DNA from: Chloroflexota bacterium
GTDB taxonomy: Bacteria; Chloroflexota; Anaerolineae; Promineifilales; Promineifilaceae
Assembly: GCA_046496595.1 (NCBI GenBank)
Contig: JAWOGU010000488.1
Span: 1-42,896, forward strand
Direction: 5' to 3'
Length of the DNA stretch: 42,896 nt
Numbering within the stretch: position 1 is the stretch's first letter; each line of letters starts with the position of its first letter. Both the position numbers and the translations under genes were made by a program. A model generated the notes under the pieces. The model saw only the letters and a program-made list of their open reading frames with translations, did not search any database and had not been told where the DNA came from. Positions 1 through 42,896 of the stretch are shown here, one piece after another.

Positions 1-827
1 GATTCCCGGTACGCTTTGGGCACTTGCAGCCGTCCCACCGAGTCCAGCACTACCAGTTCTTCAAAATGCTCTTCTTCGCTGGCGTGGTCCGGGTGGACTT
101 CGGCGGCGCTGCCGTCGCCATTGCCGTTCCGCTTGCGGCGCACCGTTTCGCTGGCGGCCTTGCCGTCCCGAATCGCCATCACCCGGCCCACGTGTTTCGC
201 CACCGTCGGATCGTGGCTGACGATGAGGATGGTGACGCCCAATTCGCGGTTGAGCGTTTGAAACGCTTCATAAATGGTGAGCGAGGTCACGCTGTCCAGT
301 TCGCCGGTTGGCTCATCGCCCAGCAAAATGGCCGGTTCGTTCGCCAGCGCCACCGCAATCGCCACCCGCTGCTGCTCCCCGCCGGACATCTCCGGCAGGT
401 AATGGTGCTTGCGTTCGGCAAGCCCCACCATGTCCAGCAGTTCTTCGGCTCGGACGCGGGTCTTTTTGCCGGTGCGTCCCGCCAGGGTCATGGGCATTTC
501 CACGTTTTCCAGGGCGGAGAGATAGGTGATCAGGTTGCGCGCTCCCTGCTGCCAGATGAAGCCCACTTTTTCGCGCCGGTATTTGTTGATGGCGGCGTCG
601 GATAGTTTAAGCAGATCGTGTCCATCCACAATCACCTTGCCGGCGGAAGGACGCACCAGTCCGCCCAGCACATTCATGAGCGTACTTTTGCCGCTGCCGC
701 TCACGCCGACAATGCCCATCAGTTCGCCCTGCTGCACGGTCAGGTCCAGCCCTTGCAGCGCCAGCACTTCCAGATCGGCAATTTTGTAGATTTTGACGAG
801 ATTTTCGCAGGTAATAATGTCGGGCAT
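1..827 (-). CDS. ABC transporter ATP-binding protein (MacB/LolD type); C-terminal end cut by the window edge
   Basis: Not in the ORF track because it is open at the edge. My own minus-strand translation from the ATG at 827 gives MPDIITCENLVKIY..., Walker A GVSGSGKST, signature MSGGEQQRVAIA, Walker B ILLGDEPTGELD and H-loop IVSHD. The start overlaps the upstream stop as ATGA (825-829). Confidence 0.9.
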   Translation of the reverse strand, partial: MPDIITCENLVKIYKIADLEVLALQGLDLTVQQGELMGIVGVSGSGKSTLMNVLGGLVRPSAGKVIVDGHDLLKLSDAAINKYRREKVGFIWQQGARNLITYLSALENVEMPMTLAGRTGKKTRVRAEELLDMVGLAERKHHYLPEMSGGEQQRVAIAVALANEPAILLGDEPTGELDSVTSLTIYEAFQTLNRELGVTILIVSHDPTVAKHVGRVMAIRDGKAASETVRRKRNGNGDGSAAEVHPDHASEEEHFEELVVLDSVGRLQVPKAYRE

Positions 828-3682
828 CAGACGGTTTCTCCCAATTTAATGGCCTGGAAGATTTTCATGCGGCGCAGCATGACGGCCAACACGGCCAAAG
901 CGGCCAGGAACAGCAGCACAAAGAGGCCGTAAATCTGGTAGATGGCAGGCCAGGCGATTTCGACGAGGTAGGGCGGCACCAGATCAGAAGCGGTTTCGCC
1001 CGTTTGCAGGTAGGGGATGAACAGGTTGCTGATCCACACGCCCAGGATGGTGCCCAACGTCAGGCCGGTGAGAATGAGAACGGCCGTTTCCGCCGCCACC
1101 AGCGTGATCATCTGCCGGGTAGAGAGGCCAACCGCCCGCAAAATGCCCAGGCTGATAAACCGCCGCCGGAAGGAGAACAAGGCGTACATAAAATACCCCA
1201 GCACCGTCAGCAGCGCCGCCGCCACAAAGCCCACCGACAACTGTCCAAAAAGCCCCTGCCGCGCCGGCCGCGCCTGTTCCACGTTAATCAGCGTGACGGC
1301 TTCTTGCCAGCGCCAGCCAAAGAGGTTGCGCTCTGACAGCGCCTGCTTAAAAGCCGCCTGGTCAAGTTCACCATCAGTCCGCAGCCAGACATTATAGGGA
1401 TATTCGCCGCCCGTCAGCGTAAACAACGTGTCCAGATTGCCCACAAACAAAGGGCCGTCTTCCACCTCATACCAGGTGGGGAAATAATCCAGTTCGCCCA
1501 CAATTTGCGTATCCAGCACCACTTCGCCATCGGTCGTGCCGATGGTCAGGCGGAACAAATCACCCACACGCAGCCCTTTTTCTTGCATGAACTGGCGGGA
1601 GGCTAAAATCGCTTCCGGCGAGGAAGCCAGATTGTTGAGCAGGCTGATCAGGCGCAGATCGGCAAAATCCCAGCGCCAGAAAGCCGTTTCGGCAAAATCA
1701 ATGCGGTCGATGCCCATATAGACGCCGGACTGCCGGCTGCCGCCAATTTGAGCTTTGGCCGGATACTCAGCCACACGCGCCGCTGAAACGACCCCTGGAA
1801 ATTCTTTGTATTCGGACAGCGGCAGGAAGATGGCGCGGTTCGGCCCATCTTCTTGTTCTCCACCGGCGCTGCCAAAGCTGCTGGCGCCAAAGCTGCGGCC
1901 GGCGCCCCACAGGGAAGCGTCTGAGCCTGTCTGGTACAGGGCGTCATCGTATAACTGGAGGTCCAGGGTAAAGGCCAGCGAAGCCGTGAAAGCCGCCAGA
2001 CTGACGGTCAGTACCAGTAAAATAAGCGGCATGGCGTAGGTGCGCGGGGTGCGCGCCAGTTCTCTGCCCGCCAGCAATAGGCCGACGCTGTTGGTTTTGT
2101 ATAACAGCCAACAGAAGGCTTCCATCAGCCAGGGGAACAGGCGCACAAAAATCAAGGTCAAAGACACAATCGCCAGCGTAGGCAAGACAAACAAAAGCGG
2201 ATTTGAGAAGGGGTCGTCGCTTTGGCTTTCGCCCAGGGCAATCAACTGGCCTTGTTCTTGCAGCAGGTAGAAGCCGTAAATCGCCAGCGCCAACAGAATG
2301 ACATCTACCCAGGCGCGCTGCCACCAGGGTTTTTTGAAGGCGCGGGCCTGTTCCTGTTTGTAGGTGATGATGGTGTCTTTGGCGGCCGACAGGGTGGGGA
2401 TAATTTGGGCAATGAGGGCCAGACCAATCGCCAGCAGTCCGGCGCGCAGGGCGGTCTGGTTCATGGTGATTGAAAGTAGTTCGCCGCTGCTGAAATCCAG
2501 GAAGCTGCGTGTTTTGCCCATGAAGGCGGCGATGCTGATAGCAACGGCCGTTCCCAACATAAACGCCAGCATTCCCAAAAACAGCCCTTCCACCAGAGCA
2601 AAACCCAATACCTGCCAGGGCGTTGCCCCCCGGCTGCGCATCACTGCAATCTCATTGCGCCGCTGATCTACCGCCAGCCCCACAATCAAAATGACAAACG
2701 CCAGCACCAGGCCGACAACCGGCACGTTAAAGGCCGTCAGCAGCACTTGCAGCGCCTGCGCCGATTCCCGGTAATCTTGCAGCGCTTTAACCGGCGAGGC
2801 GCTGCCGGAGGTATTGGGCAGCAGGGTGGTGATGCGCCGCTCTACCTGGCTGGCGCCTGCCAGCAGGCGGTCTACCTGTTCTGTGGTCACGCTGCTGCCG
2901 TTGAGCACAAAATACCAGGAGGCGCGGTTGATTTCGCCGCTGATTTGCGGGCTGAGCCAATCGCGGAATGTTTCCACGGGAACAAACAGGGTGTCGTCGA
3001 AGGCGGTGGGAGCAAACAGCCAGTATGGATCTGCTTCGTCGTTGGGCCGCCAGACGCCGCTGATGATGATGGGGATTTCAGGGAGCGGGCTTTCGTCATT
3101 GATAAAGTCATACGCCACCAGGACGTCGCCGACCTGCAAGCCGAGTTCGGTGGCGGCGGCTTCGGCCACCATCACCTCGATGGGAGTTGAGCCGTTGGCC
3201 GTTGGCAGCCGCCCATTCGTCACCACCACATGGTCCGCCAGATTGCTGGCTGTGCCGATGACAAAGATGCCCAGCGATTTAGAATCGTCGGCGTAACTAC
3301 TGGTATCGGCCGGAAACAGTTTGTACCGATCCGTTTCATAAACATCAACAAATTCTTCAACCGGCAGCCCCAATAATTGCCGGCCGCTGCCATTCAGATA
3401 ATCATGGACAGGACGGGTATCCTCCCAGTCCACCGCCCCATACCACGCGCCCACATAATCGTAAAGATAGGCAAATGGCGGGCGGCGGCGCTTGTCGGCG
3501 CTTTCCTGGATATTTTCCTGGAGGATGTTGAGATAAACGGCATCCGCATACAACGGTACAGCCATAATGAGCGCCACGGCTGCCGTAATGCCAATGACAA
3601 TCGCCAGCGTCAGTCCTTTTTGCGCCCACAAACGCTTAAAAGTAATCGTGAAGATAGAGCGGATACGATATAAAAATGACAT
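827..3682 (-). CDS. ABC transporter permease with two FtsX domains (MacB-like, 951 aa)
   Basis: Long ORF with hydrophobic 4-helix bundles at both the middle and the C-terminus, separated by large soluble domains. Translationally coupled to the ATPase (ATGA overlap) and starts 2 nt after the adaptor gene. Confidence 0.85.
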   Translation of the reverse strand: MSFLYRIRSIFTITFKRLWAQKGLTLAIVIGITAAVALIMAVPLYADAVYLNILQENIQESADKRRRPPFAYLYDYVGAWYGAVDWEDTRPVHDYLNGSGRQLLGLPVEEFVDVYETDRYKLFPADTSSYADDSKSLGIFVIGTASNLADHVVVTNGRLPTANGSTPIEVMVAEAAATELGLQVGDVLVAYDFINDESPLPEIPIIISGVWRPNDEADPYWLFAPTAFDDTLFVPVETFRDWLSPQISGEINRASWYFVLNGSSVTTEQVDRLLAGASQVERRITTLLPNTSGSASPVKALQDYRESAQALQVLLTAFNVPVVGLVLAFVILIVGLAVDQRRNEIAVMRSRGATPWQVLGFALVEGLFLGMLAFMLGTAVAISIAAFMGKTRSFLDFSSGELLSITMNQTALRAGLLAIGLALIAQIIPTLSAAKDTIITYKQEQARAFKKPWWQRAWVDVILLALAIYGFYLLQEQGQLIALGESQSDDPFSNPLLFVLPTLAIVSLTLIFVRLFPWLMEAFCWLLYKTNSVGLLLAGRELARTPRTYAMPLILLVLTVSLAAFTASLAFTLDLQLYDDALYQTGSDASLWGAGRSFGASSFGSAGGEQEDGPNRAIFLPLSEYKEFPGVVSAARVAEYPAKAQIGGSRQSGVYMGIDRIDFAETAFWRWDFADLRLISLLNNLASSPEAILASRQFMQEKGLRVGDLFRLTIGTTDGEVVLDTQIVGELDYFPTWYEVEDGPLFVGNLDTLFTLTGGEYPYNVWLRTDGELDQAAFKQALSERNLFGWRWQEAVTLINVEQARPARQGLFGQLSVGFVAAALLTVLGYFMYALFSFRRRFISLGILRAVGLSTRQMITLVAAETAVLILTGLTLGTILGVWISNLFIPYLQTGETASDLVPPYLVEIAWPAIYQIYGLFVLLFLAALAVLAVMLRRMKIFQAIKLGETV

Positions 3683-3684
3683 GG

Positions 3685-4893
3685 TTACTGCCCAACGATG
3701 ATCTGGCCTGCTTCAAGACCGCTTACGATCTCCACCAGTCCATTGCCGCTGATGCCCAGTTCCACATCCACCCGCTCTTGCACATCCCCTTCTTCCACCA
3801 CCACAAACTTACGGCCGTTAAAATCACGAATGGCAGAGGATGGCAGCGTCAACACGTCGTTTCTAATCTGGATGACGACCTTGATGTCCATTAAGTCTCC
3901 GGGTTCAAACCCGGCAGAGTCCTCGGGATTGTCGAAGCTGAAGTGGGTGCGGGTGTCGCTGTCGCCCACTTCCGTGCCGCCGCCGCCTGCGCCAAAGGGA
4001 TATGGCAGCTTACGAATGACGCCGGGCACCGCCTCGCCCGGGCGGCTGCCTGGCGCCAGGAGTACCGGCATCCCTTCAGCCAGTTCTTCCATCTGGTTCT
4101 CACGCAAACTGGCGTTGACTTCCAACTGTTCCATATCTGCGATGGAACCCACTGGTTGGAAAGCGGAAATGGCGTAACCTTCAGATAAATTGAGCGATAA
4201 AAGCTGACCGGAGAAGGGCGCTTTGAGCACGGCGTCTTCCACTAATTTCTCAATTTCGGCTACGCGCAGGGCCGCCTGTTCCACTTCTGCTTGCAGGGCC
4301 GGATCGATGTCGGTTGACAGGGCGTCCAGGTCTAACTGTGTCAGTTCAAGCTGGAGCGCCAGACGGTCAATGTTGAACTGCTGATCGGTGGATGGTGTGT
4401 CACCGGCCTGTGTTTTGGCCTGATCCAGGTTTAGCTGGGCGATGGCGACGGCGATTTCTGCCCGGCGGCGGGCTTGTTGGCGTTGGCTTTCCGTGTTTTC
4501 CAGGCGGGATTGGGCAATGGTCAGGGCTTGCTGCGCCAGGAGGAGGTCTTCGGCCAGCGCCTGGGTGTTCAATTCGGCCAGGATGTCGCCTGCTGCCACC
4601 AGATCGCCTTTATCGACGTGAACGGCCGAGACCACGCCGTCCATGGCAAAGGCCAGCGGCTCTTCGATGACCGGCGCGACTCGTCCGGAGAAACTGGCGT
4701 CGTAGACCACGTCACCGGGGGTAACGGCATAGGTGGTGCGGGCAGCGGCAACGGCCGTTGGCATAGGGGTCGGGTCGGAGTTGCGCGCTGCCGGTTCTTG
4801 CCGGGTTGGTTGGGAAGCGCAGGCCGCCAGGAGCAGTCCAGCCAGGATGAAAACAATGCAAACAGTGACGTATCGAAATGGTTTCATATGCAA
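3685..4893 (-). CDS. HlyD-family periplasmic adaptor / efflux lipoprotein
   Basis: Lipoprotein signal (LAGLLLAACAS), lipoyl-like motif GDLVAAGDILAEL, a long Ala/Gln/Leu-rich coiled-coil stretch and a C-terminal beta-barrel-like region. First gene of the adaptor-permease-ATPase operon. Confidence 0.8.
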   Translation of the reverse strand: MHMKPFRYVTVCIVFILAGLLLAACASQPTRQEPAARNSDPTPMPTAVAAARTTYAVTPGDVVYDASFSGRVAPVIEEPLAFAMDGVVSAVHVDKGDLVAAGDILAELNTQALAEDLLLAQQALTIAQSRLENTESQRQQARRRAEIAVAIAQLNLDQAKTQAGDTPSTDQQFNIDRLALQLELTQLDLDALSTDIDPALQAEVEQAALRVAEIEKLVEDAVLKAPFSGQLLSLNLSEGYAISAFQPVGSIADMEQLEVNASLRENQMEELAEGMPVLLAPGSRPGEAVPGVIRKLPYPFGAGGGGTEVGDSDTRTHFSFDNPEDSAGFEPGDLMDIKVVIQIRNDVLTLPSSAIRDFNGRKFVVVEEGDVQERVDVELGISGNGLVEIVSGLEAGQIIVGQ

Positions 4894-5128: not shown

Positions 5129-5246
5129 GGTGTGGAGGTGTAGGGGTGATGGGGTGTGGAGCAAGGCCATGGTCATGGTAAAAGGGTTTTTCACCCCATC
5201 ACCCGCTCACCCCATCACCTCCACATCTTCTCACCCCGATCACCTC
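5129..5246. repeat. Inverted pair of octamer arrays: (GGTGNNGG)x4, a 29-nt spacer, then (TCACCNNN)x7
   Basis: The left arm GGTGTGGAGGTGTAGGGGTGATGGGGTGTGGA (5129-5160) is largely complementary to CACCCCATCACCCGCTCACCCCATCACCTCCAC (5192-5224). It sits immediately 3' of the WYL gene stop, so it is terminator-like. Confidence 0.7.
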
Positions 5247-6214
5247 TACAGATTGTACGCTTCGACGACGGCGTAGGCGGTTTCCAGCAGGTGTTGGCGT
5301 AGTTCGGGGGGATGGAGGATGGTAACGGCCGTTCCCAAACCCAACAGCTTGCGGCAGGCGTCTTCCGGGGATGAAAAGGGAATGGTCAGGCGTAAACGGC
5401 CGTTGCTAAGCAGGTCGCTTTGCTCGGTGATGAGGTGGTACATGCCTTCGCCGAACGTTTCCACCAGCAGGGTGGTGTGGGTAGGCAGCACCGTCAGCGT
5501 CACGTCATAGCGGCTGTGCCCTTCTTCCAGGTGTTGGCACCATTCCTGCCAGAAAGCGCGCAGGTCAAACTCTTTGGGCCGCTGAAAAACGCTGTCTGTC
5601 AGAAAGGCGTCCTGAATGCGCGACACCCGGAAGGTGTAGACGGTGTTAAACATGCCCGCCGCCATGTACCAGACGTTGGCTTTGGCGACCAGACCATAGG
5701 GATCCACCAGACGCTTGACCCAGGCGCCGTCGGCGCGGCGGTAGGTCATGCGCAGGCGGCGTTCCTGCCAGACGGCGTCCTGCACCAGATGCAAATAGGG
5801 GGTTGGCTCTTCTTGTTGGAAGAAAACGGCCGTGTCTAAATGAATGCGCTGGCGTACTTTTTCGGCGTCTTTTTGGAAGGGGGCAGGCAGGGAGGCCGTG
5901 AGTTTGAGCATAGCGCCTTCCGACGCCTTGTCCGCGCCTAAATCCGCCAGCAGGCCGGGCACGGTAAACATGAACAGCGCCCGCACTTCGTTTTCGTTGA
6001 GGCCGGTGAGATTGGTGCGATAGCTGTCCATCAGAAAACAGCCGCCCTGCGGACCGCGTTCCGCATAGACAGGTACGCCCGACATGCTCAGAGCGTCCAG
6101 ATCCCGGTAGATGGTGCGCGGGGATACTTCCAGCCGATCCGCCAGTTCTTGGGCAGTCATCTGGCCGTGTGTTTGCAGCAGCATCAAAAGCGAGATAAGG
6201 CGATCTGCTCTCAT
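5246..6214 (-). CDS. YafY-family transcriptional regulator (HTH + WYL domain)
   Basis: N-terminal HTH MTAQELADRLEVSPRTIYRDLDALSMSGVPV. Central WYL-type segment RLRMTYRRADGAWVKRLVDPYGLVAKANVWYMAA. C-terminal WCX-like region. Confidence 0.85.
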   Translation of the reverse strand: MRADRLISLLMLLQTHGQMTAQELADRLEVSPRTIYRDLDALSMSGVPVYAERGPQGGCFLMDSYRTNLTGLNENEVRALFMFTVPGLLADLGADKASEGAMLKLTASLPAPFQKDAEKVRQRIHLDTAVFFQQEEPTPYLHLVQDAVWQERRLRMTYRRADGAWVKRLVDPYGLVAKANVWYMAAGMFNTVYTFRVSRIQDAFLTDSVFQRPKEFDLRAFWQEWCQHLEEGHSRYDVTLTVLPTHTTLLVETFGEGMYHLITEQSDLLSNGRLRLTIPFSSPEDACRKLLGLGTAVTILHPPELRQHLLETAYAVVEAYNL

Positions 6215-6222: not shown

Positions 6223-7578
6223 TTACCCTTCCAGAGCGCCTAAAATGACGGGTAGAAGCTGCTTTTTGCGGGAAACAACATCTGTCGCTTTTAGCGTGTT
6301 GTTGTCCAGGCGCGGATAGGGCAGCACGTCCAGGGCCGACATTTCATTGGACATGATGAGGCGGCTGGTGCGGCGCACGACATCTGTGACCATGAGCATG
6401 GTGAAATTCAGACCGCGTGAATCACGTAAACGGCACAGCGCATCCCGCAGATCCTGGATATGATCTTCCAGTTGGGCGAAGTTGGTCACTTCTACCTGGG
6501 CGATGCCAAACTTGTATTCGTCGGTTTCGTAGAGTTTGAAGTCTGCGGAAACAATGTCTTCCGGCTTACGGGAGGTGAGACCAGAACCGGCTTCCAGCAT
6601 TTGCTCTCCAAAGGTTTGAATGGTTTCATTTTCTAAGGGCGAACCGCCGATGAATGCCCAACGGGACAAACGGTCGGCAGCCAGATGGTCGCGGGGAGTG
6701 GTGGTGGGCGAAGCCAGGATGAGGGTGTCGGAGAGCAGCCCGGCAAGCAGCAGACCGGCCAGTTCCGGCGGGGCGCTGAGGCCGGCTTCGTTGATGCGCT
6801 CACAGACGAGGGTGCTGGTGCTGCCTACCACGTCTACCGTGAAACGGATGGGGGTGCGCGTGGTGGGGTTGCCCAGCCGGTGGTGGTCCAAAATTTCCAG
6901 CAGGTCGGCTTCATCGAGAGCGCCGATGGATTGGCCGGATTCGTTGTGGTCTACCAGGATGACTTGCAGGCGGGGCGGGTTGAGGGCTTCGCGCTGGCGG
7001 CAAATGCCGGCGTAGCTGCCGTGTTCGTCCACGATCCAGAAGTCGCTGCGTTCTTCGCGCAGGATGCGGGGCAGGGCGTCTTTAATGCGAGTGTTGATGT
7101 GAAAGCGGGGCACTTCGGTGTCGCAGGCTTCCTTGGAGGGGCGATCCAGCAGTTCGGCGATGCGGGTTTCTTCACGCCGGGGATGGGAACCGACGGAGCG
7201 GCTGAGGAAATCGAAGAGACTGAGGACGGTGACGAGGCCGTAGGGTTTGCCGTCTTTGGTGACGATGGGGGCGACGCCGCCGGTGCGGTTGGCAATGGCC
7301 CACGCTTCGCGTAACGGCCGTTCCGGCGTCGTGGTGTTGAGCCGGTGGTTGATGGATTCAAAGCGAGGGGAAGCGTCTGGCAGCAGCATGGGCGGTTCCA
7401 GCCCCAACCTGTTTAGCACCCAGGTTGTCTGCGGGTTGAGCTGTCCGGCGCGGGCGGCGACGACGTTGGCGCCCTGCTGGTCGCGCAGCAGCCAGGCGTA
7501 GCCGGTGGCCGAGGCGATGGCGTCTGTATCTGGGTTGACATGCCCTATGACGTAGATGAGTCCGGTTTTCTCTGACAT
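6223..7578 (-). CDS. CBS-domain-containing DHH/DHHA2 phosphoesterase (family II inorganic pyrophosphatase-like)
   Basis: DHH motifs GHVNPDTDAIAS, VDHNE, LDHHRLG and LLSDT. A CBS-pair-like insert of about 120 aa lies between motifs II and III. C-terminal DHHA2-like region (ADFK...GIAQVE). Confidence 0.8.
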   Translation of the reverse strand: MSEKTGLIYVIGHVNPDTDAIASATGYAWLLRDQQGANVVAARAGQLNPQTTWVLNRLGLEPPMLLPDASPRFESINHRLNTTTPERPLREAWAIANRTGGVAPIVTKDGKPYGLVTVLSLFDFLSRSVGSHPRREETRIAELLDRPSKEACDTEVPRFHINTRIKDALPRILREERSDFWIVDEHGSYAGICRQREALNPPRLQVILVDHNESGQSIGALDEADLLEILDHHRLGNPTTRTPIRFTVDVVGSTSTLVCERINEAGLSAPPELAGLLLAGLLSDTLILASPTTTPRDHLAADRLSRWAFIGGSPLENETIQTFGEQMLEAGSGLTSRKPEDIVSADFKLYETDEYKFGIAQVEVTNFAQLEDHIQDLRDALCRLRDSRGLNFTMLMVTDVVRRTSRLIMSNEMSALDVLPYPRLDNNTLKATDVVSRKKQLLPVILGALEG

Positions 7579-7763
7579 GAAATGCGTCCTTCAATGAGTT
7601 AATGGTATGATATTTTTATCGTGTTAACGGCCGTTTGTCCACTGTTTTGCCTGGGTGTGGGCGTTCGTTGTTCCCTGGTGACTTTGATACAATCAGCGGC
7701 GCATTACTAATTTGGATTTACGGCGGCATTGGCTATTTCCGCCGGCAAACAAGGAGGAAGACC

Positions 7764-8306: not shown

Positions 8307-8324
8307 TTTTTTCCGCCGCACTGC

Positions 8325-8354
8325 AAGCCCTGTCCTGGTTACAGGGCTTTTTTG
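8325..8354 (+). terminator. Intrinsic terminator after the DUF308 gene
   Basis: Stem AAGCCCTGT / ACAGGGCTT with a 7-nt loop, followed by TTTTTT. Confidence 0.7.
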
Positions 8355-8454
8355 TGGGAGATGGCTGAGAAACGGCCGTTTTCCAATTGCCTTGCCGCTG
8401 CCAGGGGTTGTATAGTTGGCTGGTACCTGATTTTAAGAAACAAGGAATTCATCC

Positions 8455-29628: not shown

Positions 29629-29637
29629 TCCAACTTT

Positions 29638-30831: not shown

Positions 30832-30834
30832 ATA

Positions 30835-31814: not shown

Positions 31815-32054
31815 GTTTTTCTCGGGGGATGAGGGGAACGGCCGTTTCCATGAGTTTTCGTACTCTTTTAACAATGCGAGCAGGTTTAGCAGACGAATCA
31901 AACCGTTTTCACAACGGCCGTTTTCCCTTGTTGGCAATAACTGTAAAAGCCAGCCATCGACTGAATGTGTAGTACCGTTGGAATATGTTTTTTGTAAGAT
32001 ATTTGCGTTAATATCAACTCTGAAAAATTTTCAAATCCCTTACCGAGACCTTTT

Positions 32055-33500: not shown

Positions 33501-33853
33501 GTGAGTTTCGGGCGCTGATTATTGAAGATGATGAGGCGATTGCCGCAATTTACGTGGAAGCATTACAGTTGGCAGGGTATGAAACAGAGATTGTGGGTAA
33601 CGGCCGTTTTGCCATACAGCGCCTGGGTGAAATAACGCCATGGCTGATTTTGTTAGATCTGCACCTGCCAGAAGTGGCAGGCGAAAAGGTCCTTCAATTT
33701 ATCAAAAACGAACCGAACCTGGCTTCTACCCGCATCTTTATCACCACCGCGGATCACCTCTGGGCCGAGGAATTACGCCCCAAAGTGGATCTGGTGTTGT
33801 TGAAACCGATTAGCTTAATGCAGCTGCGCGATATGGCGCTGCGTTTTCGTTAA
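33497..33853 (+). CDS. Single-domain response regulator (receiver only)
   Basis: ALIIEDDEAIA, LILLDLHLPEV and LLKP motifs. ATGA overlap with the kinase gene. Confidence 0.85.
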   Translation: MSEFRALIIEDDEAIAAIYVEALQLAGYETEIVGNGRFAIQRLGEITPWLILLDLHLPEVAGEKVLQFIKNEPNLASTRIFITTADHLWAEELRPKVDLVLLKPISLMQLRDMALRFR

Positions 33854-36414: not shown

Positions 36415-37359
36415 ATGGTATATGTGGAGAATCAAAACATCACCGACCCGCGTCTTAATCTGGGGCTGGAAGAGTATTTGCTGCGCCACGGACCGGTCGA
36501 GGAGCCGATTTTACTCTTTTACGTCAATGAGCCTTCTGTGATTGTGGGGCGCAACCAGAATGTGTGGGAAGAGGTTGACTCGGATTACGTGGCTGCCAAT
36601 GGGGTAAATGTGGTGCGCCGCCTGTCGGGCGGGGGGGCGGTTTACCACGATTGGGGCAATCTCAATTTCAGCTTTATCACCAGCGGCGCACAAAAGCTGC
36701 ACAATTTCCGGCTGTTTCTAGAGCCGGTGATTCGGGTGCTTAACGGCTTGGGTGTACCGGCTGAACTGCACGGCAAGAGCGACATTTACGCCGCCGGCAG
36801 GAAGCTGTCGGGTAACGCGCAATACCTGACCGGACAGCGCCTCGTCAGCCACGGCACCATTTTGTTTGACAGCGATTTGGAAGCGCTGCTGCGCGCCCTG
36901 AATCCGCGCCAGACGCAGATTGAGTCCAGAGCGGTGCAGTCTATCCGGGCGAAGGTGACCAACATTGTGGAGTGGCTGCCGGAGATGGACATGGCAGGCT
37001 TGCGGCAGGCACTGCTGACGGGTATTTTTGCGGGGAAGGCAGTGCAGACCTATGAATTGTCTGACGATGAATGGGCGCGGGTGCAGGAAATGAAGGCGGC
37101 TCGGTATGATACCTGGGCCTGGAATAACGGCCGTTCTCCCCAATTCACCGTCCACAAAGAAGCAGATGGCATCCAGGTTTCCCTGCGAATAGAACGCGGC
37201 TGCATCCAATCCATCACGTTTCCTAATGCGCCTGATCACCCCACCCTCAACCTGCTGCAAACGCAGTTGGCTGGCATCCGGTACCAGCGTCAGGATGTGG
37301 AAAATACGTTACTGGCTCATGGTTCAACATCCCCCAACCTGCTCAAATTCCTATTTTAA
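36415..37359 (+). CDS. lplA: Lipoate-protein ligase A
   Basis: RRLSGGGAVYHDWGNLNFSF and the catalytic lysine region GRKLSGNAQ. Confidence 0.8.
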   Translation: MVYVENQNITDPRLNLGLEEYLLRHGPVEEPILLFYVNEPSVIVGRNQNVWEEVDSDYVAANGVNVVRRLSGGGAVYHDWGNLNFSFITSGAQKLHNFRLFLEPVIRVLNGLGVPAELHGKSDIYAAGRKLSGNAQYLTGQRLVSHGTILFDSDLEALLRALNPRQTQIESRAVQSIRAKVTNIVEWLPEMDMAGLRQALLTGIFAGKAVQTYELSDDEWARVQEMKAARYDTWAWNNGRSPQFTVHKEADGIQVSLRIERGCIQSITFPNAPDHPTLNLLQTQLAGIRYQRQDVENTLLAHGSTSPNLLKFLF

Positions 37360-37393: not shown

Positions 37394-37786
37394 TTATTTT
37401 TCCTTTCCTTCAAACTTTAACGAAGCAGAATTGACGCAGTAACGCAGACCGGTCGGCTGCGGACCATCGGTGAAGACGTGGCCTAAATGAGCGCCGCACT
37501 CGTCGCAAATAATCTCGGTGCGCACCATAAAATGGCTGCGATCCGTTTCTTCGCGCACGATTTCGTCCTGGAGTGGGGCATAGAAGCTGGGCCAGCCGCA
37601 GCCGGAATCGTATTTTGTCTCAGAGCTAAACAACTCAGCCCCGCAGACCACGCAGGTGTAGACGCCGTTTTCTTTGTGGTCGTAATATTCGCCGGTAAAC
37701 GGCCGTTCCGTGGCCTTCTCCTGAGTGACGTTGTATTGGATAGGAGTGAGGCGTTGGCGTAATTCAGCATCAGATGGTTTGTTCAT
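37394..37786 (-). CDS. msrB: Peptide-methionine (R)-S-oxide reductase
   Basis: SelR domain with two CxxC pairs ([21 protein letters not shown]) and RYCVNS. Start set at the ATG at 37786 ([12 protein letters not shown]) with AGGAGA upstream. The 64-codon N-terminal extension in the ORF track is rejected. Confidence 0.9.
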
Positions 37787-37940
37787 GGGTTTTCTCCTTT
37801 TCTGGAATTTTGGGCATTGTACCCTGCTGCGGCGAGGATGGTGGGAACTGTAAGACTTTGTTAAGGGAAACGGCCGTTGATCTGTGGGACGCCATGCAAA
37901 CGGCCGATTCGTTGGACAGCATTCAAGCCTACGCCGCCCA

Positions 37941-37969
37941 TTGACAGCCCGCCCACCCCATGATAGCAT
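37941..37969 (+). promoter_or_regulatory. Sigma-70-like promoter upstream of the alaS leader region
   Basis: TTGACA, a 17-nt spacer, then TGaTAGCAT (perfect -35, TGn-extended -10). The ATG at 37977 is 8 nt past the -10, so the transcript may be leaderless. Confidence 0.4.
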
Positions 37970-37976
37970 TTCTGCC

Positions 37977-38057
37977 ATGACGAATCAGAGCTTGTTTGTT
38001 TACGAAAGCGCCGCCGCTGCCAGCCACTCCCCCGGTTTGGCTGTTTGCGCTGCCTGA
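37977..38057 (+). CDS. Candidate 26-aa Ala-rich leader peptide [26 protein letters not shown]
   Basis: Hand translation. It has four consecutive Ala codons (GCC GCC GCT GCC) and 7 Ala in 26 residues. A canonical terminator begins 31 nt after its stop, and alaS starts 213 nt after its stop. Confidence 0.3.
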
Positions 38058-38269: not shown

Positions 38270-40987
38270 ATGAAACCAACAACCAGCAACGAAATCCGAC
38301 AGGCTTTTCTCGACTTTTTCCAGGAAATGAAGCACGAGGTCGTCGCCAGCGCCCCGCTGCCGCAGAAAGACAACCCGACTTTGCTCTTTACCAACGCCGG
38401 CATGAACCAGTTTGTGGACGTGTTTTTGGGGAAGGAAAAACGGCCGTATAACCGCGCCGCCACCTCCCAAAAATGTATGCGCGTGCAGGGTAAACACAAC
38501 GACCTGGAAAATGTCGGGCCATCGCCGCGCCACCACACCTTCTTTGAAATGCTCGGCAACTTCTCCTTTGGCGATTATTTCAAGGAAGGCGCCATCCGCT
38601 ACGGCTACGATTTCCTGACCAAAGTGTGCCAGATTCCGGCCGATCGGCTCTACTTCACCGTCCATACCAGCGACGACGATGCCTACAACATCTGGTTGAA
38701 CGAAATTGGCGCGCCCCCTGAACGCATTTTACGCATGGGCGACAAGACCAATTTCTGGATGATGGGCGATGTTGGTCCCTGCGGCCCCACCAGCGAAATC
38801 CACTACGACTGGGGGCCGGAACCCTGCACCTGCCGCCAGCCCAACTGCTCCGTGCTGCTGGATAACGACTGCGACCGCTGGCTGGAGGTGTGGAACCTGG
38901 TCTTCATGCAATTTGACCAGGCTGAGGACAGTACGCGCACCCCGCTGCCCAAACCGGGCGTCGATACCGGCATGGGATTGGAACGCCTGACCAGCGTCAT
39001 CCAGGGCACGCAGGCCAACTACGACAACGACCTCTTCCTGGCAGCCATGGATAAAGTGCAGGAAATGCTGGGCGACAGCGATGAAGAGCGCCGCGAAAAA
39101 TACGTAGGCTATCGCGTCATTGGCGACCACGGCCGGGCGGCTACCTTCCTCATTGCCGATGGCGTGCGTCCCGGCGCGGCGGCCGCCAGCTACGTGCTGC
39201 GCATGATCATCCGGCGGGCGGCTCGTTTTGGGCGGCAGATTGGCTTTCAACGGCCGTTTCTAGCAGAAGTCGCGCAGGTGTTCATTGACGAAATGGGCGA
39301 ACACTACCCCGAACTGCGCCAGAACCAGGACCACATCAAACACACCCTCACCCAGGAAGAGCGCCGTTTTGCCCGCACCCTCGATCAGGCCATCGTACAG
39401 CTCCTTGCCATCCTCGAAGATATGGGTCAAAAAGGCGAAACCGAAATCTCCGGCGAAGTGGCCTTCGACCTGTACGCCACCTACGGTCTGCCCCTGGAAA
39501 TCACCCGCGACCTCATCCGCGAGCGCAATATCACCATCGACGAAAAAGGCTATGTCAAAGCGCGCGAACTCCACGCCCTTGCCAGCGGTTCAGGCGCGTT
39601 CAAAGGGTACGAACGTGGCACCAACGCCTACGGCGATTTGCTGCTGGAACTGGTGGAAGCGGGTCAACTGGGAGAAAGCGGCGTGGAATATGATCCCTAC
39701 GCCGGTTCGCGGATGCGGGCGGACGTGGTGGCGCTGCTCAAAGATGGGCAGCCGGCGCCGAAACTAAGCGTGGGCGACAAGGCAGAAATCATCACCGCCG
39801 CCACCCCATTTTACGTGGAAGCGGGCGGCGAGGTCAGCGATACCGGCGTCATCGACTTCCTGGACACCGGGGCGCAGTTCCGCGTGCATACCGTCGCCAA
39901 ACCGGTTCCCGGACTGGTCATCCACTTAGGCGAAGTGGTGCGGGGCGACATTGAAGTGGGGCAGGAAGCGCGGCTGCTGGTGGACGATGCCCGCCGCGCC
40001 GACATTCGGCGGAACCACACCGCCACCCACATTTTGCACCGCGAACTGCGCGCTCACCTGGGTACGCACGTCACTCAGCAGGGATCGCTCGTCGCCCCCG
40101 ACCGCCTGCGTTTCGACTTCTCCCACAATCAGGCGGTGGACAAAACCACGTTGGCAGCCATTGAAGCGGACATCAACCGGGCGATCCTGGCAAATTACCC
40201 CGTCAAAATTCATTACATGGGCCAGAAAGAAGCCATCGACAAAGGCGCCATGGCCCTGTTTGGCGAAAAATACGGCGACATCGTGCGCACCATCACCATT
40301 GGCGGTGAAAGCAGCGGAGCCATTGACTCCGCCTATAGCATGGAACTGTGCGGCGGCCTGCACGTCAGCGAAACCAACGACATCGGCCAGTTCCATTTTG
40401 TGCATGAAGGAGCGGTGGCGGCCGGCGTGCGCCGCATTGAGGCTGTGACCGGGCGCGGCGCGCAGGCGTTGATTGCCGAGCGGCTGGCGGTGCTGGAGCG
40501 TGTGGAACAGCTTCTCAATGCGCCGCTGAACGAGGTGGAAACCCGTCTTACAAACTTGTTGGCGGATCACAAGGCGCTGCAAAAGGAATTCGGCCAGCTT
40601 CAACGGCAGGCGGCGCGCTCCCAATTTGATGCGCTCCTGGCGCAGGTGCAGGAGGTGGCGGGCGTTAAGCTGCTGGCGGCGCAGGTAGACGTTTCCGACG
40701 TGGACACCATGCGCGAGATGGCCGACTGGTTCCGCGACAAGGCAGTCTCCGGTGTGGCGGTGCTGGCGGCGGTGAACGAGGGCAAACCGGTGTTTATCGT
40801 CACGGTGAGTGACGATCTGGTGAAACGCGGCCTGAAAGCGGGCGACATTGTACGCGAGGTTGCTAAGGTGGTGGGCGGCGGCGGCGGCGGCCGGCCAAAC
40901 ATGGCTCAGGCTGGCGGTCGAGACGCGGCGAAGATTCCGGAAGCGCTGGCGTTGGCGCCGGGGCTGGTGGAAGCGGCGTTAAGTTAA
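38270..40987 (+). CDS. alaS: Alanine--tRNA ligase
   Basis: FTNAGMNQF, HHTFFEMLGNFSFGDY, WMMGDVGPCGPTSEIHYD, editing-domain HTATHIL / CGGLHV, and a C-terminal DHHA1-like GGGGGRPNMAQAGG. Confidence 0.95.
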   Translation: MKPTTSNEIRQAFLDFFQEMKHEVVASAPLPQKDNPTLLFTNAGMNQFVDVFLGKEKRPYNRAATSQKCMRVQGKHNDLENVGPSPRHHTFFEMLGNFSFGDYFKEGAIRYGYDFLTKVCQIPADRLYFTVHTSDDDAYNIWLNEIGAPPERILRMGDKTNFWMMGDVGPCGPTSEIHYDWGPEPCTCRQPNCSVLLDNDCDRWLEVWNLVFMQFDQAEDSTRTPLPKPGVDTGMGLERLTSVIQGTQANYDNDLFLAAMDKVQEMLGDSDEERREKYVGYRVIGDHGRAATFLIADGVRPGAAAASYVLRMIIRRAARFGRQIGFQRPFLAEVAQVFIDEMGEHYPELRQNQDHIKHTLTQEERRFARTLDQAIVQLLAILEDMGQKGETEISGEVAFDLYATYGLPLEITRDLIRERNITIDEKGYVKARELHALASGSGAFKGYERGTNAYGDLLLELVEAGQLGESGVEYDPYAGSRMRADVVALLKDGQPAPKLSVGDKAEIITAATPFYVEAGGEVSDTGVIDFLDTGAQFRVHTVAKPVPGLVIHLGEVVRGDIEVGQEARLLVDDARRADIRRNHTATHILHRELRAHLGTHVTQQGSLVAPDRLRFDFSHNQAVDKTTLAAIEADINRAILANYPVKIHYMGQKEAIDKGAMALFGEKYGDIVRTITIGGESSGAIDSAYSMELCGGLHVSETNDIGQFHFVHEGAVAAGVRRIEAVTGRGAQALIAERLAVLERVEQLLNAPLNEVETRLTNLLADHKALQKEFGQLQRQAARSQFDALLAQVQEVAGVKLLAAQVDVSDVDTMREMADWFRDKAVSGVAVLAAVNEGKPVFIVTVSDDLVKRGLKAGDIVREVAKVVGGGGGGRPNMAQAGGRDAAKIPEALALAPGLVEAALS

Positions 40988-41074
40988 AGAATAAAGATTG
41001 AAGATTAAAGATTAAAGATTGGTCTCGAAATTGCGTCCAAATCTTTAATCTTCAATCCGCAATCTTCAATTTTT
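40986..41074. repeat. AAGATTN-family hairpin filling the whole alaS-downstream spacer: five heptamers, a 19-nt spacer, five inverted heptamers
   Basis: AAAGAAT AAAGATT GAAGATT AAAGATT AAAGATT ... AATCTTT AATCTTC AATCCGC AATCTTC AATTTTT. It begins inside the alaS stop codon and ends 1 nt before the next ATG. Confidence 0.85.
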
Positions 41075-41075
41075 C

Positions 41076-42638
41076 ATGAAAGTTATTTCTCTCGATTCTG
41101 ACGACGACATTGTTTCCATCTGCGACCGGCTGGACTGGGCGGGCGAAAAGCAGGTGCTGTTGGTGCTGCCGCCGGATGGGGGCGCGCTGGCGGAGGGATT
41201 GGATCTGGTGCGGCTGCGGCGTCATGCGGATAGGCGGCGGATTGAGGTGGGATTGGTAACGGCCGTTCCCACTCTTACCCGTCAAGCTAAAGCACTTGGT
41301 CTACCCACGTTCTTGACTGTGGAGTCGGCTGAGACGAGCCGGCGGGGCTGGTGGCGCGGGCGGCGGCGCTCTGAAATTGTCGGGCTGCCCACCATCGGCG
41401 GCGTGACGGCGGCCGATTTGCGTCCAGCGTCGATGGATCCAGGGGATATGGAAGAAGCGCAGCGCCGGTCCACGCCGTTGAACAGTCCCAGCTTGTGGAC
41501 CCTGCGTTATCTCTCGATTTTGCTCTTTTTTCTGGCGTTGGCATTGGTTTTTGTGGCTTTCTCCTATCTCGCGCCAGGAGCGACGGTGACGCTGTCGCCC
41601 GAGGTGATACCCATTTCGGTTACCCAGGAAATTCTGGTGGACCCCTTCATTGAAGCGGTGGACTACAGCCGTTTTGCCGTGCCGGGCCGCGTGTTGCAGA
41701 TGGACCAGTCATGGCAGACTGACGTGGAGACCTCCGGCGTGATTGAAGTGCCCAGCGCTTCAGCGCGAGGCAAAGTGGTGTTCGTCAATCGCCTGGAAGA
41801 GGAAGTGACCGTGCCCGCCGGCACACGGGTTTCCACCAGCGAAGGCAGCAATGTGGTCTTCCAAACGCTGACCGCGATGCTTGTGCCAGGTGTGGCAGGC
41901 GGCACAGCCGAAGCTGACGTGATCGCCATCGAACCGGGGCCGCAGGGGAATGTGGCGGCCAATCTTATTAACAAAGTCGAGGGAACCGTAAATATTCAGC
42001 TTGAGGTGCGTAATCTGGAGCCGACGGAAGGGGGTGGGGTGCGCCAGACGTCGGCGGTCACGGAAGCGGATCAGGCGCGGCTGCGCGCCCAGGTGCTGCA
42101 ATTTTTACAGGCGGCGTCGGTGTCGGAGATGGAAGCGCAGTTGACGGCGCGGGAGTTTTTGGCGCGGGATTCGCTGCGCGTAGTCAACGTAGACAGCGAA
42201 ACCTATTCCCATTTTCCGGGCGAGCAGGCAAACCGGCTGGCTTTGGAGATGCGGGCGCAGGTGGCGGGAACGGCCGTTAACACCACCGATGCGTCTGGCA
42301 TAGTTTATGAAGCGTTAGCGGCGCAGGTCCCGGATGGTCATACATTGGTACCGGAGAGCATCAAGTTTGCCAGCGGCGGTGTGGTGGGTGTGGACGAGGC
42401 GGGGCGGGTGACGTTTGAGATGCTCGGCGAGGCGGTGGTCACGCCGGACCTGAATCTGGTTGACGCCCTGGAAGCAATTACCGGGCAGAAACCGGACATT
42501 GCCGTGGCCTATCTCTACCAGGAACTGCCTTTGCGCGAAATCCCTGAAATCCGCGTCTGGCCGAACTGGTTCAACCGCCTGCCGTTTTTAGCGACGCGCA
42601 TTGAGGCAGACGTGCGGGCAGTGGACGGTGGGCAGTGA
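41076..42638 (+). CDS. Membrane-anchored protein of unknown function; the C-terminal part is reminiscent of baseplate J (gp47)-like proteins
   Basis: One TM segment (LRYLSILLFFLALALVFVAFSYL). The extracytoplasmic region carries a pattern I associate from memory with baseplate-J-like annotations (GKVVFVN...VTVPAGTRVST...VFQT...AIEPGPQGNV). Not verifiable here. Confidence 0.45.
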   Translation: MKVISLDSDDDIVSICDRLDWAGEKQVLLVLPPDGGALAEGLDLVRLRRHADRRRIEVGLVTAVPTLTRQAKALGLPTFLTVESAETSRRGWWRGRRRSEIVGLPTIGGVTAADLRPASMDPGDMEEAQRRSTPLNSPSLWTLRYLSILLFFLALALVFVAFSYLAPGATVTLSPEVIPISVTQEILVDPFIEAVDYSRFAVPGRVLQMDQSWQTDVETSGVIEVPSASARGKVVFVNRLEEEVTVPAGTRVSTSEGSNVVFQTLTAMLVPGVAGGTAEADVIAIEPGPQGNVAANLINKVEGTVNIQLEVRNLEPTEGGGVRQTSAVTEADQARLRAQVLQFLQAASVSEMEAQLTAREFLARDSLRVVNVDSETYSHFPGEQANRLALEMRAQVAGTAVNTTDASGIVYEALAAQVPDGHTLVPESIKFASGGVVGVDEAGRVTFEMLGEAVVTPDLNLVDALEAITGQKPDIAVAYLYQELPLREIPEIRVWPNWFNRLPFLATRIEADVRAVDGGQ

Positions 42639-42716
42639 ACAGTGGACAGTGAACGGTGAACGGTGGACAGTGAACGGTGGACCGACTGTAAACTGTAAAC
42701 TGTTCACTGTAAACTG
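42619..42716. repeat. Fourteen consecutive heptamers: nine CAGTGAA/CGGTGGA-type plus five (CCGACTG TAAACTG TAAACTG TTCACTG TAAACTG)
   Basis: Indexed unit by unit. It starts in the last six codons of the upstream gene. TTCACTG is the exact complement of CAGTGAA. It has the same 9+5 unit layout as the 25925-26022 array. Confidence 0.85.
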
Positions 42717-42783
42717 ATCGTAGGGCAATCGGCGGGGCGGAAACGGCCGTTTTGTGGAATAGTAGCCTCAAGTTTAATTTCTA

Positions 42784-42896
42784 ATGGCAACCAACGACGA
42801 ACCATTTTCCCTCAAAGGACGAATTTTGGCGCTCGATTTAGGCGAGAAGCGTATTGGCGTGGCCGTCAGTGACGCCACGCGCACCATTGCCCAGCC
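42784..42896 (+). CDS. ruvX: Holliday-junction resolvase-like YqgF/RuvX, N-terminal fragment (runs off the window)
   Basis: MATNDEPFSLKGRILALDLGEKRIGVAVSDATRTIAQ matches the YqgF N-terminal signature (LDLG.KRIGVAVSD). This is the usual position downstream of alaS. Confidence 0.8.
   Translation, partial: MATNDEPFSLKGRILALDLGEKRIGVAVSDATRTIAQ

Follow-up and report, generated by a model that had tools for sequence, protein, structure and literature searches.

What could place the same short palindrome dozens of times into unrelated genes of a single bacterial contig? The question is raised by JAWOGU010000488.1, a contig of a Chloroflexota bacterium (assembly GCA_046496595.1; family Promineifilaceae in the GTDB lineage), of which the whole stretch of 42,896 nucleotides was analysed and is called the window throughout. 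A sequence-only reading, made without database searches, had noticed the 10-bp palindrome AACGGCCGTT (the 10-mer) and its 8-bp core ACGGCCGT (the 8-mer) as hyper-abundant and had proposed a genome signature resembling the highly iterated palindrome (HIP) HIP1 of cyanobacteria, with a different sequence. Our analysis indicates that the motif is very probably a HIP-class signature of a Promineifilaceae-like Chloroflexota lineage, with ACGGCCGT as its core, sharpened here to AACGGCCGTT.

Abundance in the window and across related genomes

The window contains 39 copies of AACGGCCGTT and 49 copies of ACGGCCGT, the latter comprising the 39 within 10-mers and 10 others, so that 80% of the octamers are extended to the 10-mer. 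All 39 starts and all 10 additional core positions that the sequence-only reading had listed by eye proved exact, and it had missed no copy. Its estimate of about 58% G+C was too high (55.8% by computation), and its expectation of about 0.05 copies of the 10-mer is in line with the order-0 value of 0.048. Markov models of orders 1-3 predict 0.08-0.16 copies of the 10-mer, and those of orders 0-3 predict 0.9-1.5 copies of the 8-mer. Dinucleotide shuffling yields expectations of 0.07 and 1.06 copies, respectively, and none of 100 shuffles reaches 39 copies of the 10-mer. With the motif masked from the background, the expectations become 0.05-0.10 and 0.64-1.2, corresponding to an excess of about 400-750-fold for the 10-mer and about 40-77-fold for the 8-mer, which has a density of 1,142 per Mb. 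The maximal-order Markov expectation for the 10-mer, 39.3, is circular and uninformative because the 9-mers on which it is built are all motif copies.

The enriched unit is at least 8 bp long. Outside ACGGCCGT, the hexamer CGGCCG occurs 31 times in the window against 25-37 expected, which is no enrichment, and GGCC outside the motif is slightly depleted (230 observed against 299-392 expected). The HIP1 octamer GCGATCGC is not among the abundant octamers of the window or its relatives.

The AlaS protein encoded in the window matches Chloroflexota metagenome-assembled genomes (MAGs), the best match sharing 88% amino-acid identity. Matches named to family or genus level are Ardenticatenaceae, Promineifilaceae, Ca. 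Leptovillus and Ca. Trichofilum, the last two of which are placed in Promineifilaceae by NCBI. When palindromes were counted in 80 fetched loci of AlaS relatives, ACGGCCGT ranked first among palindromic octamers in about 23 relatives, at 12-53 copies per 9-23 kb (1.1-2.5 per kb). Pooling the window with 23 loci from related genomes (24 sequences, 464 kb; the pooled set) gives 814 copies of ACGGCCGT where 10-17 are expected, a density of 1,754 per Mb and an observed/expected ratio of about 50-80. The window and its nearest relatives use the flanked form AACGGCCGTT, and another subgroup uses CACGGCCGTG. Three genomes carry GCGGCCGC (32-46 copies, often as CGCGGCCGCG), with not one ACGGCCGT in 65 kb of their clade; three carry CCGGCCGG (up to 58 copies, often as CCCGGCCGGG); and one carries GGCCGGCC. 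Among the 80 loci, nothing comparable was found in several equally close relatives or in any of the more distant Anaerolineae and Thermoflexus. MAGs that exemplify the variants are GCA_015075765.1 (JABTTU01, with a 4.57-Mb contig), Ca. Leptovillus affinis JADIYP01, CBDCWU01 and CBDCVS01 for ACGGCCGT, Ca. Trichofilum aggregatum JADJUV01 and JAHDWJ01 for GCGGCCGC and JACKCB01 for CCGGCCGG, while CAZOGK01, CAVVOI01 and JBFFWQ01 are motif-free; to judge by several contig names, some relatives were assembled from long reads. A neighbour-joining tree of AlaS nests the GCGGCCGC clade within the ACGGCCGT group and places the CCGGCCGG genomes nearer the base.

Furthermore, a metagenome scan for pairs of 10-mers at a distance of 40-70 bp yielded 120 contigs (570 kb) with 1.77 octamers per kb, drawn from many samples that include activated sludge; for the 50 contigs that reach 4 kb or more, the median without the two seed copies is 1.47 per kb. 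Because their selection required the motif, these contigs attest to its breadth across samples and genomic regions, and their density is not an unbiased estimate for whole genomes. Rather than being local to the window or an artefact of assembly, the motif is a signature of the whole lineage: the excess recurs in about 23 independently assembled relatives as well as in metagenome and phage contigs, which disposes of the objection, raised at the outset, that it might be confined to the window by assembly or duplication.

Two observations concern the fetched relatives themselves. Contigs labelled 'Patescibacteria group bacterium' (L028) and 'Candidatus Zixiibacteriota bacterium' (L031) encode AlaS proteins of 62-63% identity, within the range of Promineifilaceae MAGs, and are probably mis-binned. 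The alaS frames of L057 and L037 are broken by 6-7 stops arising from a few single-base indels; those checked in L057, as a possible hint of methylation-linked base-calling errors, do not lie at motif sites.

Origin of the copies and candidate causes

The motif overrides codon choice and distorts protein composition, variant by variant. In the window, 22 of the 23 Thr-Ala-Val tripeptides are spelled ACGGCCGTT and 11 of the 15 Asn-Gly-Arg tripeptides AACGGCCGT, a spelling for which codon usage predicts about 5%. Across the pooled set, ACGGCCGT encodes 388 of 405 Thr-Ala-Val tripeptides (96%), against a codon-usage prediction of about 13.5% for ACG-GCC and of about 2% when GTT is also required. 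The tripeptides are themselves enriched, each in the genomes of one variant only: Thr-Ala-Val is 6.4-fold over expectation in ACGGCCGT genomes (1.1-1.3 elsewhere), Ala-Ala-Ala 3.35-fold in GCGGCCGC genomes and Pro-Ala-Gly 3.7-fold in CCGGCCGG genomes, with motif-encoded shares of 90% and 86% for the latter two. Pooled density is 1.75 per kb in coding and non-coding DNA alike, and all three reading frames are used (393, 190 and 112 sites). Equal density, occupancy of every frame and near-complete spelling of Thr-Ala-Val by the motif together uphold the earlier argument that selection on proteins is not the cause.

Copies arise in place by point substitution, not by insertion. Presence/absence differences between pairwise alignments are gap-free in 92% of cases, and in a codon alignment of alaS as many as 19 genomes have sites at identical columns. 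Column 170 shows the codons AAA CGG CCG TAy unchanged across 19 genomes amid variable third positions nearby, and motif-free relatives use other codons for the same Arg-Pro. At column 1073, which corresponds to the window site at 39249, comparison with the closest relatives shows that a Gln/Glu to Arg change (CAG to CGG) created the motif, which three other genomes gained in parallel; at column 1867, motif genomes have Gly in place of a residue that otherwise varies. A CACGGCCGT site (CAC GGC CGT) has been kept in genomes with CA..TG or mixed flanks and has decayed to CGG in those with AA..TT flanks, and because its fate follows the flank type, the 10-bp specificity is real. Sites are thus gained by substitution as in HIP1, the comparison that the sequence-only reading had suggested as a check. 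At matched divergence, the motif is conserved about fivefold more than other 8-mers: site conservation is 48% where 10% of aligned 8-mers are identical and 73% where 19% are.

These results bear directly on an ordinary cause, be it a mobile or repetitive extragenic palindromic (REP)-like repeat, a duplication or assembly artefact, a codon or amino-acid preference, or a restriction-modification target. Short GC-rich palindromes are indeed typical of REP elements and restriction sites, and the Thr-Ala-Val frame dominates in the window (22 of 45 coding sites). Such causes are nonetheless refuted, and we leave them next to no probability: 92% of gains and losses are substitutions, conserved alaS codons hold the sites in as many as 19 genomes that were assembled independently, the motif makes equal use of all frames and of non-coding DNA, codon usage falls far short of the 96% observed, and restriction targets are normally avoided rather than enriched 40-80-fold. 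The flanks of the copies are unique and not complementary beyond chance (3.61 pairs of 12 in individual copies against 3.43 by chance), and a hairpin, cruciform or REP-type reading was rejected on this ground. Features of REP elements and miniature inverted-repeat transposable elements were likewise not found, given that 92% of the window sites are genic, that gains and losses are substitutions and that the flanks are unique.

In order to account for such a pattern, we favour a bias acting within the cell. Substitutions that complete the palindrome would be fixed far more often than those that break it, as the equilibrium counts suggest; assuming mutation-fixation equilibrium, the ratio of motif to neighbouring sequences would correspond to a scaled fixation bias S of about 4.4. 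The source of the bias would be a trans-acting, lineage-specific protein, probably a homodimer, which recognises DNA by reading two 8-bp half-sites around the CGGCCG centre. A change in the flank specificity of this protein would produce the sister variants GCGGCCGC and CCGGCCGG, and its loss the motif-free relatives. Site-bearing and probably modified DNA may then be favoured as template or partner in mismatch correction or homologous recombination, a process that would amount to biased gene conversion, similar to the methylation-dependent, Chi-like enhancement of recombination reported for HIP1, and that would act on any DNA in these cells, prophages and phages included. This is our best explanation as a whole, identity and mechanism taken together, and we see it as evenly balanced between right and wrong; the mechanism in its specific form, an intracellular repair or recombination bias favouring DNA with a probably modified site, is put forward tentatively and falls somewhat below an even chance.

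The sequence around the sites is informative about what may read them. Across 261 non-coding sites, base frequencies are G 0.46, G 0.41, A 0.50, A 0.73 on the left flank and T 0.77, T 0.50, C 0.42, C 0.47 on the right, yielding a symmetric consensus GGAA-ACGGCCGT-TTCC that fades outwards and constitutes a 16-bp palindrome, GGAAACGGCCGTTTCC. The G/C positions of the consensus flanks are common to all ACGGCCGT subgroups. The earlier claim that copies are often extended holds in the form of this graded consensus and not as exact repeats, since GGAAACGGCCGTTTCC itself occurs only once in the window, at 15517-15532.

Over the 464 kb of the pooled set, variants at the outer base are enriched 1.2-6.4-fold, with TCGGCCGT/ACGGCCGA at the top, inner transversion variants are mostly depleted (observed/expected 0.3-0.9) and inner transitions are near expectation (0.9-1.6). 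Within 150 clusters of orthologous sites, 24 of 40 single-base variant records fall at the outer base, and single-step inner variants comprise 15 transitions to 1 transversion, where the background transition fraction is 0.49. This transition-only halo fits the decay of abundant C/G-rich sites. Short-range spacing is near random in the same 464 kb (coefficient of variation 0.95, in loci of at most 43 kb), with a scarcity of very short gaps (4.3% against 9.5% under a Poisson model; Kolmogorov-Smirnov p = 0.006). The periodicity that characterises HIP sites is on a scale of 18-94 kb.

A symmetric, graded 16-bp consensus that extends to non-coding DNA would also be compatible with selected sites of an abundant dimeric nucleoid protein, maintained by purifying selection for chromosome folding, segregation or replication-linked functions, as would the excess conservation at orthologous positions, the equal coding and non-coding density and the shortage of very short spacings. 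We consider this quite improbable, as specific nucleoid-protein sites (parS, matS, Noc, SlmA) number tens per genome and not thousands, the 96% saturation of Thr-Ala-Val exceeds what spacing needs, spacing is otherwise near random, related lineages have no motif at all or have swapped it completely, and phages have no clear need of host chromosome-folding sites.

The motif is indeed abundant in phages. When IMG/VR was scanned for GGNAACGGCCGTTNCC, 120 loci came up, and ACGGCCGT is present at 1-3.5 per kb in about 40 of them. Densities of 1.7-2.5 per kb are found in contigs that bear tape-measure, endolysin, portal and head-protease genes, and two of these contigs, L147 (tape-measure protein and endolysin) and L128 (portal and head protease/major head protein), are real phage modules. 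In 20 motif-rich viral contigs (229 kb), density is 1.8 per kb in coding and 2.0 per kb in non-coding DNA and 92% of Thr-Ala-Val tripeptides are motif-encoded; some motif-bearing phage contigs have a G+C content of only 46-49%. As phage contigs stand at host density, the process acts on, or is selected in, phage DNA too, and this density argues against an unprotected restriction target. Among the matches listed by viral scans for GCGGCCGC and CCGGCCGG, most are phages of 65-78% G+C, in which all-GC octamers are common by composition, and only L362 and L403 look specifically enriched. L362 (IMG/VR, G+C 0.474) contains CCGGCCGG 7 times in 9.6 kb, about 72-fold over expectation, and may be a phage of a CCGGCCGG-variant host. 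In addition, the octamer CGAGCTCG is hyper-abundant in the IMG/VR contigs L380, L221 and L325 (66-70% G+C), with 14-24 copies in 7-13 kb, 40-86-fold over the expectation from base composition; HIP-like signatures may exist in other host-phage groups.

Phage density is also where a DNA uptake signal meets its main difficulty. In the manner of the uptake signal sequences (USS) of Haemophilus and the DNA uptake sequences (DUS) of Neisseria, a competence receptor would prefer palindrome-bearing DNA, and uptake with recombination would spread the motif. A density of about 1-2 per kb in all frames, the distortion of proteins, the graded extended consensus, the slight deficit of very short spacings and the lineage-specific variants all suit this idea, DUS being likewise lineage-specific among Neisseriaceae. 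Known uptake sequences, however, concentrate in the core genome and are scarce in prophages and islands, whereas phage structural modules, those of 46-49% G+C phages included, carry the motif here at full host density (1.7-2.5 per kb). Moreover, known uptake sequences are not palindromes, and we know of no report of competence in this bacterial group. HIP1 itself has been proposed as an uptake or transformation sequence (bioRxiv 10.64898/2026.06.24.733823; 10.1101/2024.09.10.611283), and we regard an uptake signal as possible but unlikely.

The match between phage and host is, on the other hand, what would be expected if the palindrome were a self-marker, or password, for a nuclease or defence system by which motif-free DNA is degraded or left unrepaired, with phages mimicking the motif and hosts switching its flanks. 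Phages match the host motif at full density despite their differing base composition, variant turnover is abrupt, the old motif being erased in the GCGGCCGC clade, and Chi sites have densities in the same range. Known Chi sites nevertheless lack symmetry, are recognised in single-stranded DNA and follow the direction of replication, and no such nuclease or defence system was identified here, which makes a self-marker very doubtful, even with the Chi-like effect suggested for HIP1 (bioRxiv 10.1101/2024.09.10.611283). A broader proposal, which we hold to be improbable, is that HIPs are recurrent, independently evolved genome-wide identity tags whose variants serve as passwords in host-phage or self/non-self conflict and are not by-products of methylation; a dimeric DNA-processing protein, with a flank specificity that switches abruptly from one close relative to the next, would read the 16-bp tag, and phages would copy it.

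Returning to a repair or recombination bias imposed by a site-recognising protein, we looked for candidates for that protein. No methyltransferase is encoded in the window. In some relatives, a beta-class DNA methyltransferase with a DPPY motif (PF01555) and a 317-aa open reading frame (ORF) without family lie between alaS and a Baseplate_J-like gene (L017:12806-14778; L013:3018-4990; L074 from 9154 to its end; L203:10001-11973); this cassette is absent from the equivalent spot of the window, 40988-41075. It was rejected as the determinant: L010, L016 and L034 lack it at that place and have equal motif density, its G+C is 0.47 compared to 0.55 for the locus, the family is 75-80% identical in Roseiflexus, Chloroflexus, Caldilinea and the gammaproteobacterium Caldichromatium, and the Roseiflexus locus holds the cassette without the motif. 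The two genes probably form a widely transferred restriction-modification unit. A copy 78% identical is found in a defence island of Roseiflexus castenholzii. An M.HaeIII-like 5-methylcytosine methyltransferase in the metagenome contig L493 was set aside, being paired with a BsuBI/PstI-type endonuclease at low G+C, that is, an ordinary restriction cassette. Motif-rich phage contigs encode methyltransferases of their own: an enzyme with SPPY, the motif typical of N4-cytosine enzymes, in L196 (7110-7949), and DPPY enzymes in L169 (1586-2482) and L192 (1252-2517), whose N-terminal region appears ParB-like by eye only. A tblastn search of about 3 Mb of fetched DNA with E. coli Vsr and M.HaeIII as queries found no Vsr homologue, at low sensitivity.

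Several points weigh against the explanation that we favour. No recognition protein was found, nor a cognate methyltransferase such as the CGGCCG- or GGCC-specific enzyme to which the sequence-only reading had suggested a link, the methyltransferases in about 1.26 Mb of motif-bearing DNA belonging to low-G+C restriction cassettes or to phages, and the Roseiflexus locus has the same two cassette genes and no ACGGCCGT in 21 kb. Bare EagI (CGGCCG) and HaeIII (GGCC) sites are not enriched in the window, and methyltransferase targets are typically shorter than a graded footprint of 16 bp. A simple Vsr-type model converting T:G to C:G predicts depletion of the C-to-T neighbours, which are instead the least depleted inner variants. 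With regard to sampling, the host loci other than the window all flank alaS (metagenome and phage loci sample other regions), the conservation counts come from phylogenetically non-independent genome pairs, and the AlaS tree is a neighbour-joining tree of a single gene without support values. Finally, selection for a cellular function would lead to the same equilibrium, conservation and saturation, and selection and drive cannot be told apart from sequence alone.

Sites and genes along the window

By simple gene calling, genes take up 90% of the window, and 45 of the 49 sites (92%) fall inside them; they are unrelated housekeeping and transport genes. The 45 coding sites are read as Thr-Ala-Val (TAV; 22), as Asn-, Tyr- or Asp-Gly-Arg (NGR, YGR or DGR; 14) or as x-Arg-Pro followed by Phe, Leu or Tyr (RP; 9). 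The protein contexts given by the sequence-only reading are correct (ENGRF, GNGRF, ETAV twice in TerB, ETAVT and KRPF in GH3, QRPF in AlaS). Its count of about eight intergenic copies was too high: 4 of the 49 clearly lie between genes, and the ORFs that hold another 3 lack family support. In what follows, sites are 10-mers (AACGGCCGTT) unless called 8-mers (ACGGCCGT only), no strand is assigned to any site, and the peptide context is given in brackets.

The FtsX/MacB permease gene at 827-3682(-) contains TAV sites at 1079-1088 (ETAVL) and 2543-2552 (GTAVA), and the adjacent HlyD-family gene, 3685-4893(-), an 8-mer at 3811-3818 read as NGR (FNGRK) and a TAV site at 4750-4759 (PTAVA). Three sites fall in a WYL/HTH regulator gene, 5246-6214(-): 5324-5333 (TAV, GTAVT), which has the extended form GGTAACGGCCGTTCCC, 5395-5404 (NGR, SNGRL) and the 8-mer 5826-5833 (TAV, DTAVF). 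The DHH/DHHA2-CBS gene at 6223-7578(-) has one RP site, 7313-7322 (PERPL). Two intergenic copies follow, 7626-7635 between divergent genes and 8371-8380 in the spacer 8307-8454, ahead of the TerB gene, 8455-9393(+), with TAV at 8781-8790 (ETAVM) and 9126-9135 (ETAVF). Two ABC transporter genes come next, the first, 9459-11291(-), with an 8-mer at 9942-9949 (YGR, RYGRL) and a 10-mer at 10485-10494 (TAV, ITAVA), and the second, 11351-13261(-), with 11401-11410 (NGR, ENGRS) and 13046-13055 (TAV, RTAVI). An ORF without Pfam family, 13833-14756(-), carries 13899-13908 (TAV, LTAVP).

All three sites of the LUD-domain gene at 15064-15720(-) are read as TAV: 15472-15481 (KTAVA), 15520-15529 (ETAVS), which lies within the sole exact 16-mer described above, and the 8-mer 15563-15570 (LTAVH). 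The LUD/4Fe-4S gene, 15731-17161(-), has RP at 15846-15855 (GQRPF) and NGR at 16240-16249 (DNGRS), and the CCG-domain gene, 17158-17904(-), has TAV at 17677-17686 (ETAVV). In a further ABC transporter gene, 18103-19938(+), the 8-mers 18197-18204 (YGR, TYGRL) and 19352-19359 (NGR, DNGRV) enclose a TAV site at 19221-19230 (TTAVA). The gene at 21361-24081(-) encodes a 906-aa protein, an unusual fusion of Phage_holin_4_2, type I phosphodiesterase and Yip1 membrane domains, and contains 21958-21967 (TAV, ETAVN), 22669-22678 (TAV, LTAVS), 23343-23352 (NGR, LNGRY) and the 8-mer 23545-23552 (DGR, TDGRL). An intergenic copy at 24167-24176 (spacer 24082-24181) precedes the PMT_2/GT39-like gene, 24182-26626(-), with RP at 24483-24492 (AKRPL), an 8-mer TAV at 25242-25249 (FTAVS) and NGR at 25774-25783 (ENGRF).

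This last 10-mer borders a motif-poor stretch of 6 kb, 25784-31836, which includes a CitMHS transporter, a LuxR-type response regulator and a GAF histidine kinase. The only site within it is the 8-mer 30662-30669 (NGR, DNGRG) in the GAF histidine kinase gene, 29638-30831(+), giving 0.17 per kb compared to 1.28 per kb elsewhere, and its G+C of 0.517 is the lowest of the window. The stretch may be more recently acquired DNA; as a gap, 25.8-31.8 kb is not significant (p about 0.10-0.12). Part of its two-component system is also found near alaS in the relative L020. Two 10-mers 76 bp apart, 31837-31846 (GGGAACGGCCGTTTCC) and 31913-31922, fall in a doubtful ORF without family, 31780-32109(+), whose 109-aa frame overlaps both adjacent genes. 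It may not be a real gene, in which case its two copies are intergenic.

The remaining sites begin with 33599-33608 (NGR, GNGRF) in a response-regulator receiver gene, 33497-33853(+), followed by three in the GH3 gene, 34056-36341(+): 34601-34610 (TAV, ETAVT), 35357-35366 (TAV, VTAVQ) and 35842-35851 (RP, LKRPF). The lipoate-protein ligase gene at 36415-37359(+) has NGR at 37126-37135 (NNGRS), and the MsrB/SelR gene at 37394-37978(-) has RP at 37698-37707 (TERPF) and 37869-37878 (DQRPF). In alaS, 38270-40987(+), both sites are read as RP: the 8-mer 38440-38447 (EKRPY), with the codons fixed in 19 genomes, and 39249-39258 (FQRPF), created by the change to Arg. Directly after alaS, a Baseplate_J-like gene of 520 aa, 41076-42638(+), carries TAV at 41258-41267 (VTAVP, as GGTAACGGCCGTTCCC) and 42269-42278 (GTAVN); in relatives, it lies between alaS and ruvX-mltG (L203-L208), and because its position is kept, we take it as a conserved chromosomal gene of the clade that belongs to no obvious prophage. 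The last copy, 42742-42751, is intergenic, downstream of 42638.

Comparison with known systems

The Dcm/Vsr system of E. coli is a precedent for a methyltransferase-linked mismatch-repair bias that raises a short palindrome by point substitution (CCWGG up, CTAG down). The E. coli effect is small and its deamination products are depleted, whereas the C-to-T neighbours are the least depleted inner variants here. Like Chi sites (RecBCD/AddAB), the motif is a short, over-represented, lineage-specific oligomer that may act on repair or recombination and mark a cell's own DNA; Chi is asymmetric and strand-oriented, in contrast to a perfect palindrome with a symmetric extended consensus, and its enrichment is few-fold, without saturation of synonymous opportunities. 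With USS and DUS, the motif shares a frequency near one copy per kb, a build-up by point mutations that biased transmission favours, use of all frames with protein distortion, an extended graded consensus and lineage-specific variants. Uptake sequences differ in being asymmetric, in needing competence machinery with a specific receptor and in their depletion from prophages, unlike the phage modules here at 1.7-2.5 per kb and phage contigs overall at 1.8-2.0 per kb.

The closest likeness is to HIP1, as the sequence-only reading had proposed, and every HIP feature that these loci could show was found: hyper-abundance, dispersal in all frames, origin by substitution, excess conservation, deviations at the outer base and palindromic extension, seen in the 10-mers AACGGCCGTT, CACGGCCGTG, CGCGGCCGCG and CCCGGCCGGG. 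Cyanobacteria carry HIP1, GCGATCGC, and the alternate HIPs GGGATCCC, TCGATCGA and CAGGCCTG (Robinson 1995; Elhai 2015, PMC4390886; Xu 2018, PMC5861425). In both cases, the signature is an 8-bp GC-rich perfect palindrome, at 1,100-2,500 per Mb here and 300-2,700 for HIP1, with observed/expected ratios of 40-80 and 15-300, respectively. Both are dispersed in genes and spacers, spread by substitution and are conserved above background; 80% of 8-mers are extended to 10-mers here and 88% in one cyanobacterial genome, single-base deviations concentrate at the first and last base as Elhai described (PMC4390886), and related lineages have replaced the palindrome with another or lost it. Elhai's ratchet model ties HIPs to methyltransferases and mismatch repair (PMC4390886); its specific form, in which the methylated C must follow a G, cannot be carried over, since the outer base here varies by lineage (A, G or C). 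The role in chromosome folding, segregation or replication weighed above is of the kind that Xu et al. proposed for HIP1 (PMC5861425).

Full-text searches of the open-access literature did not turn up any description of the motif as a genome signature, or of a HIP in organisms other than cyanobacteria. The function of HIP1 has been open for thirty years and studied in one phylum only, and the motif provides a second, independent case, in one family-level clade with at least three variants on the CGGCCG centre, motif-free relatives and several near-complete MAGs. Given this range of variants, the responsible gene should be findable as a family that tracks the variant. The motif also shows how far a bias at the level of DNA can reach into proteins, with Thr-Ala-Val 6-fold enriched and nearly always spelled the same way, and it offers a one-line marker by which contigs and phages can be assigned to these filamentous bacteria of activated sludge. 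It is not HIP1 proper, as both sequence and phylum differ: Chloroflexota in place of cyanobacteria, with CGGCCG at the centre and not the CGATCG/GATC of HIP1. It differs further in having at least three flank variants around a common centre in one family-level clade, a graded 16-bp symmetric consensus and full density in phage genomes.

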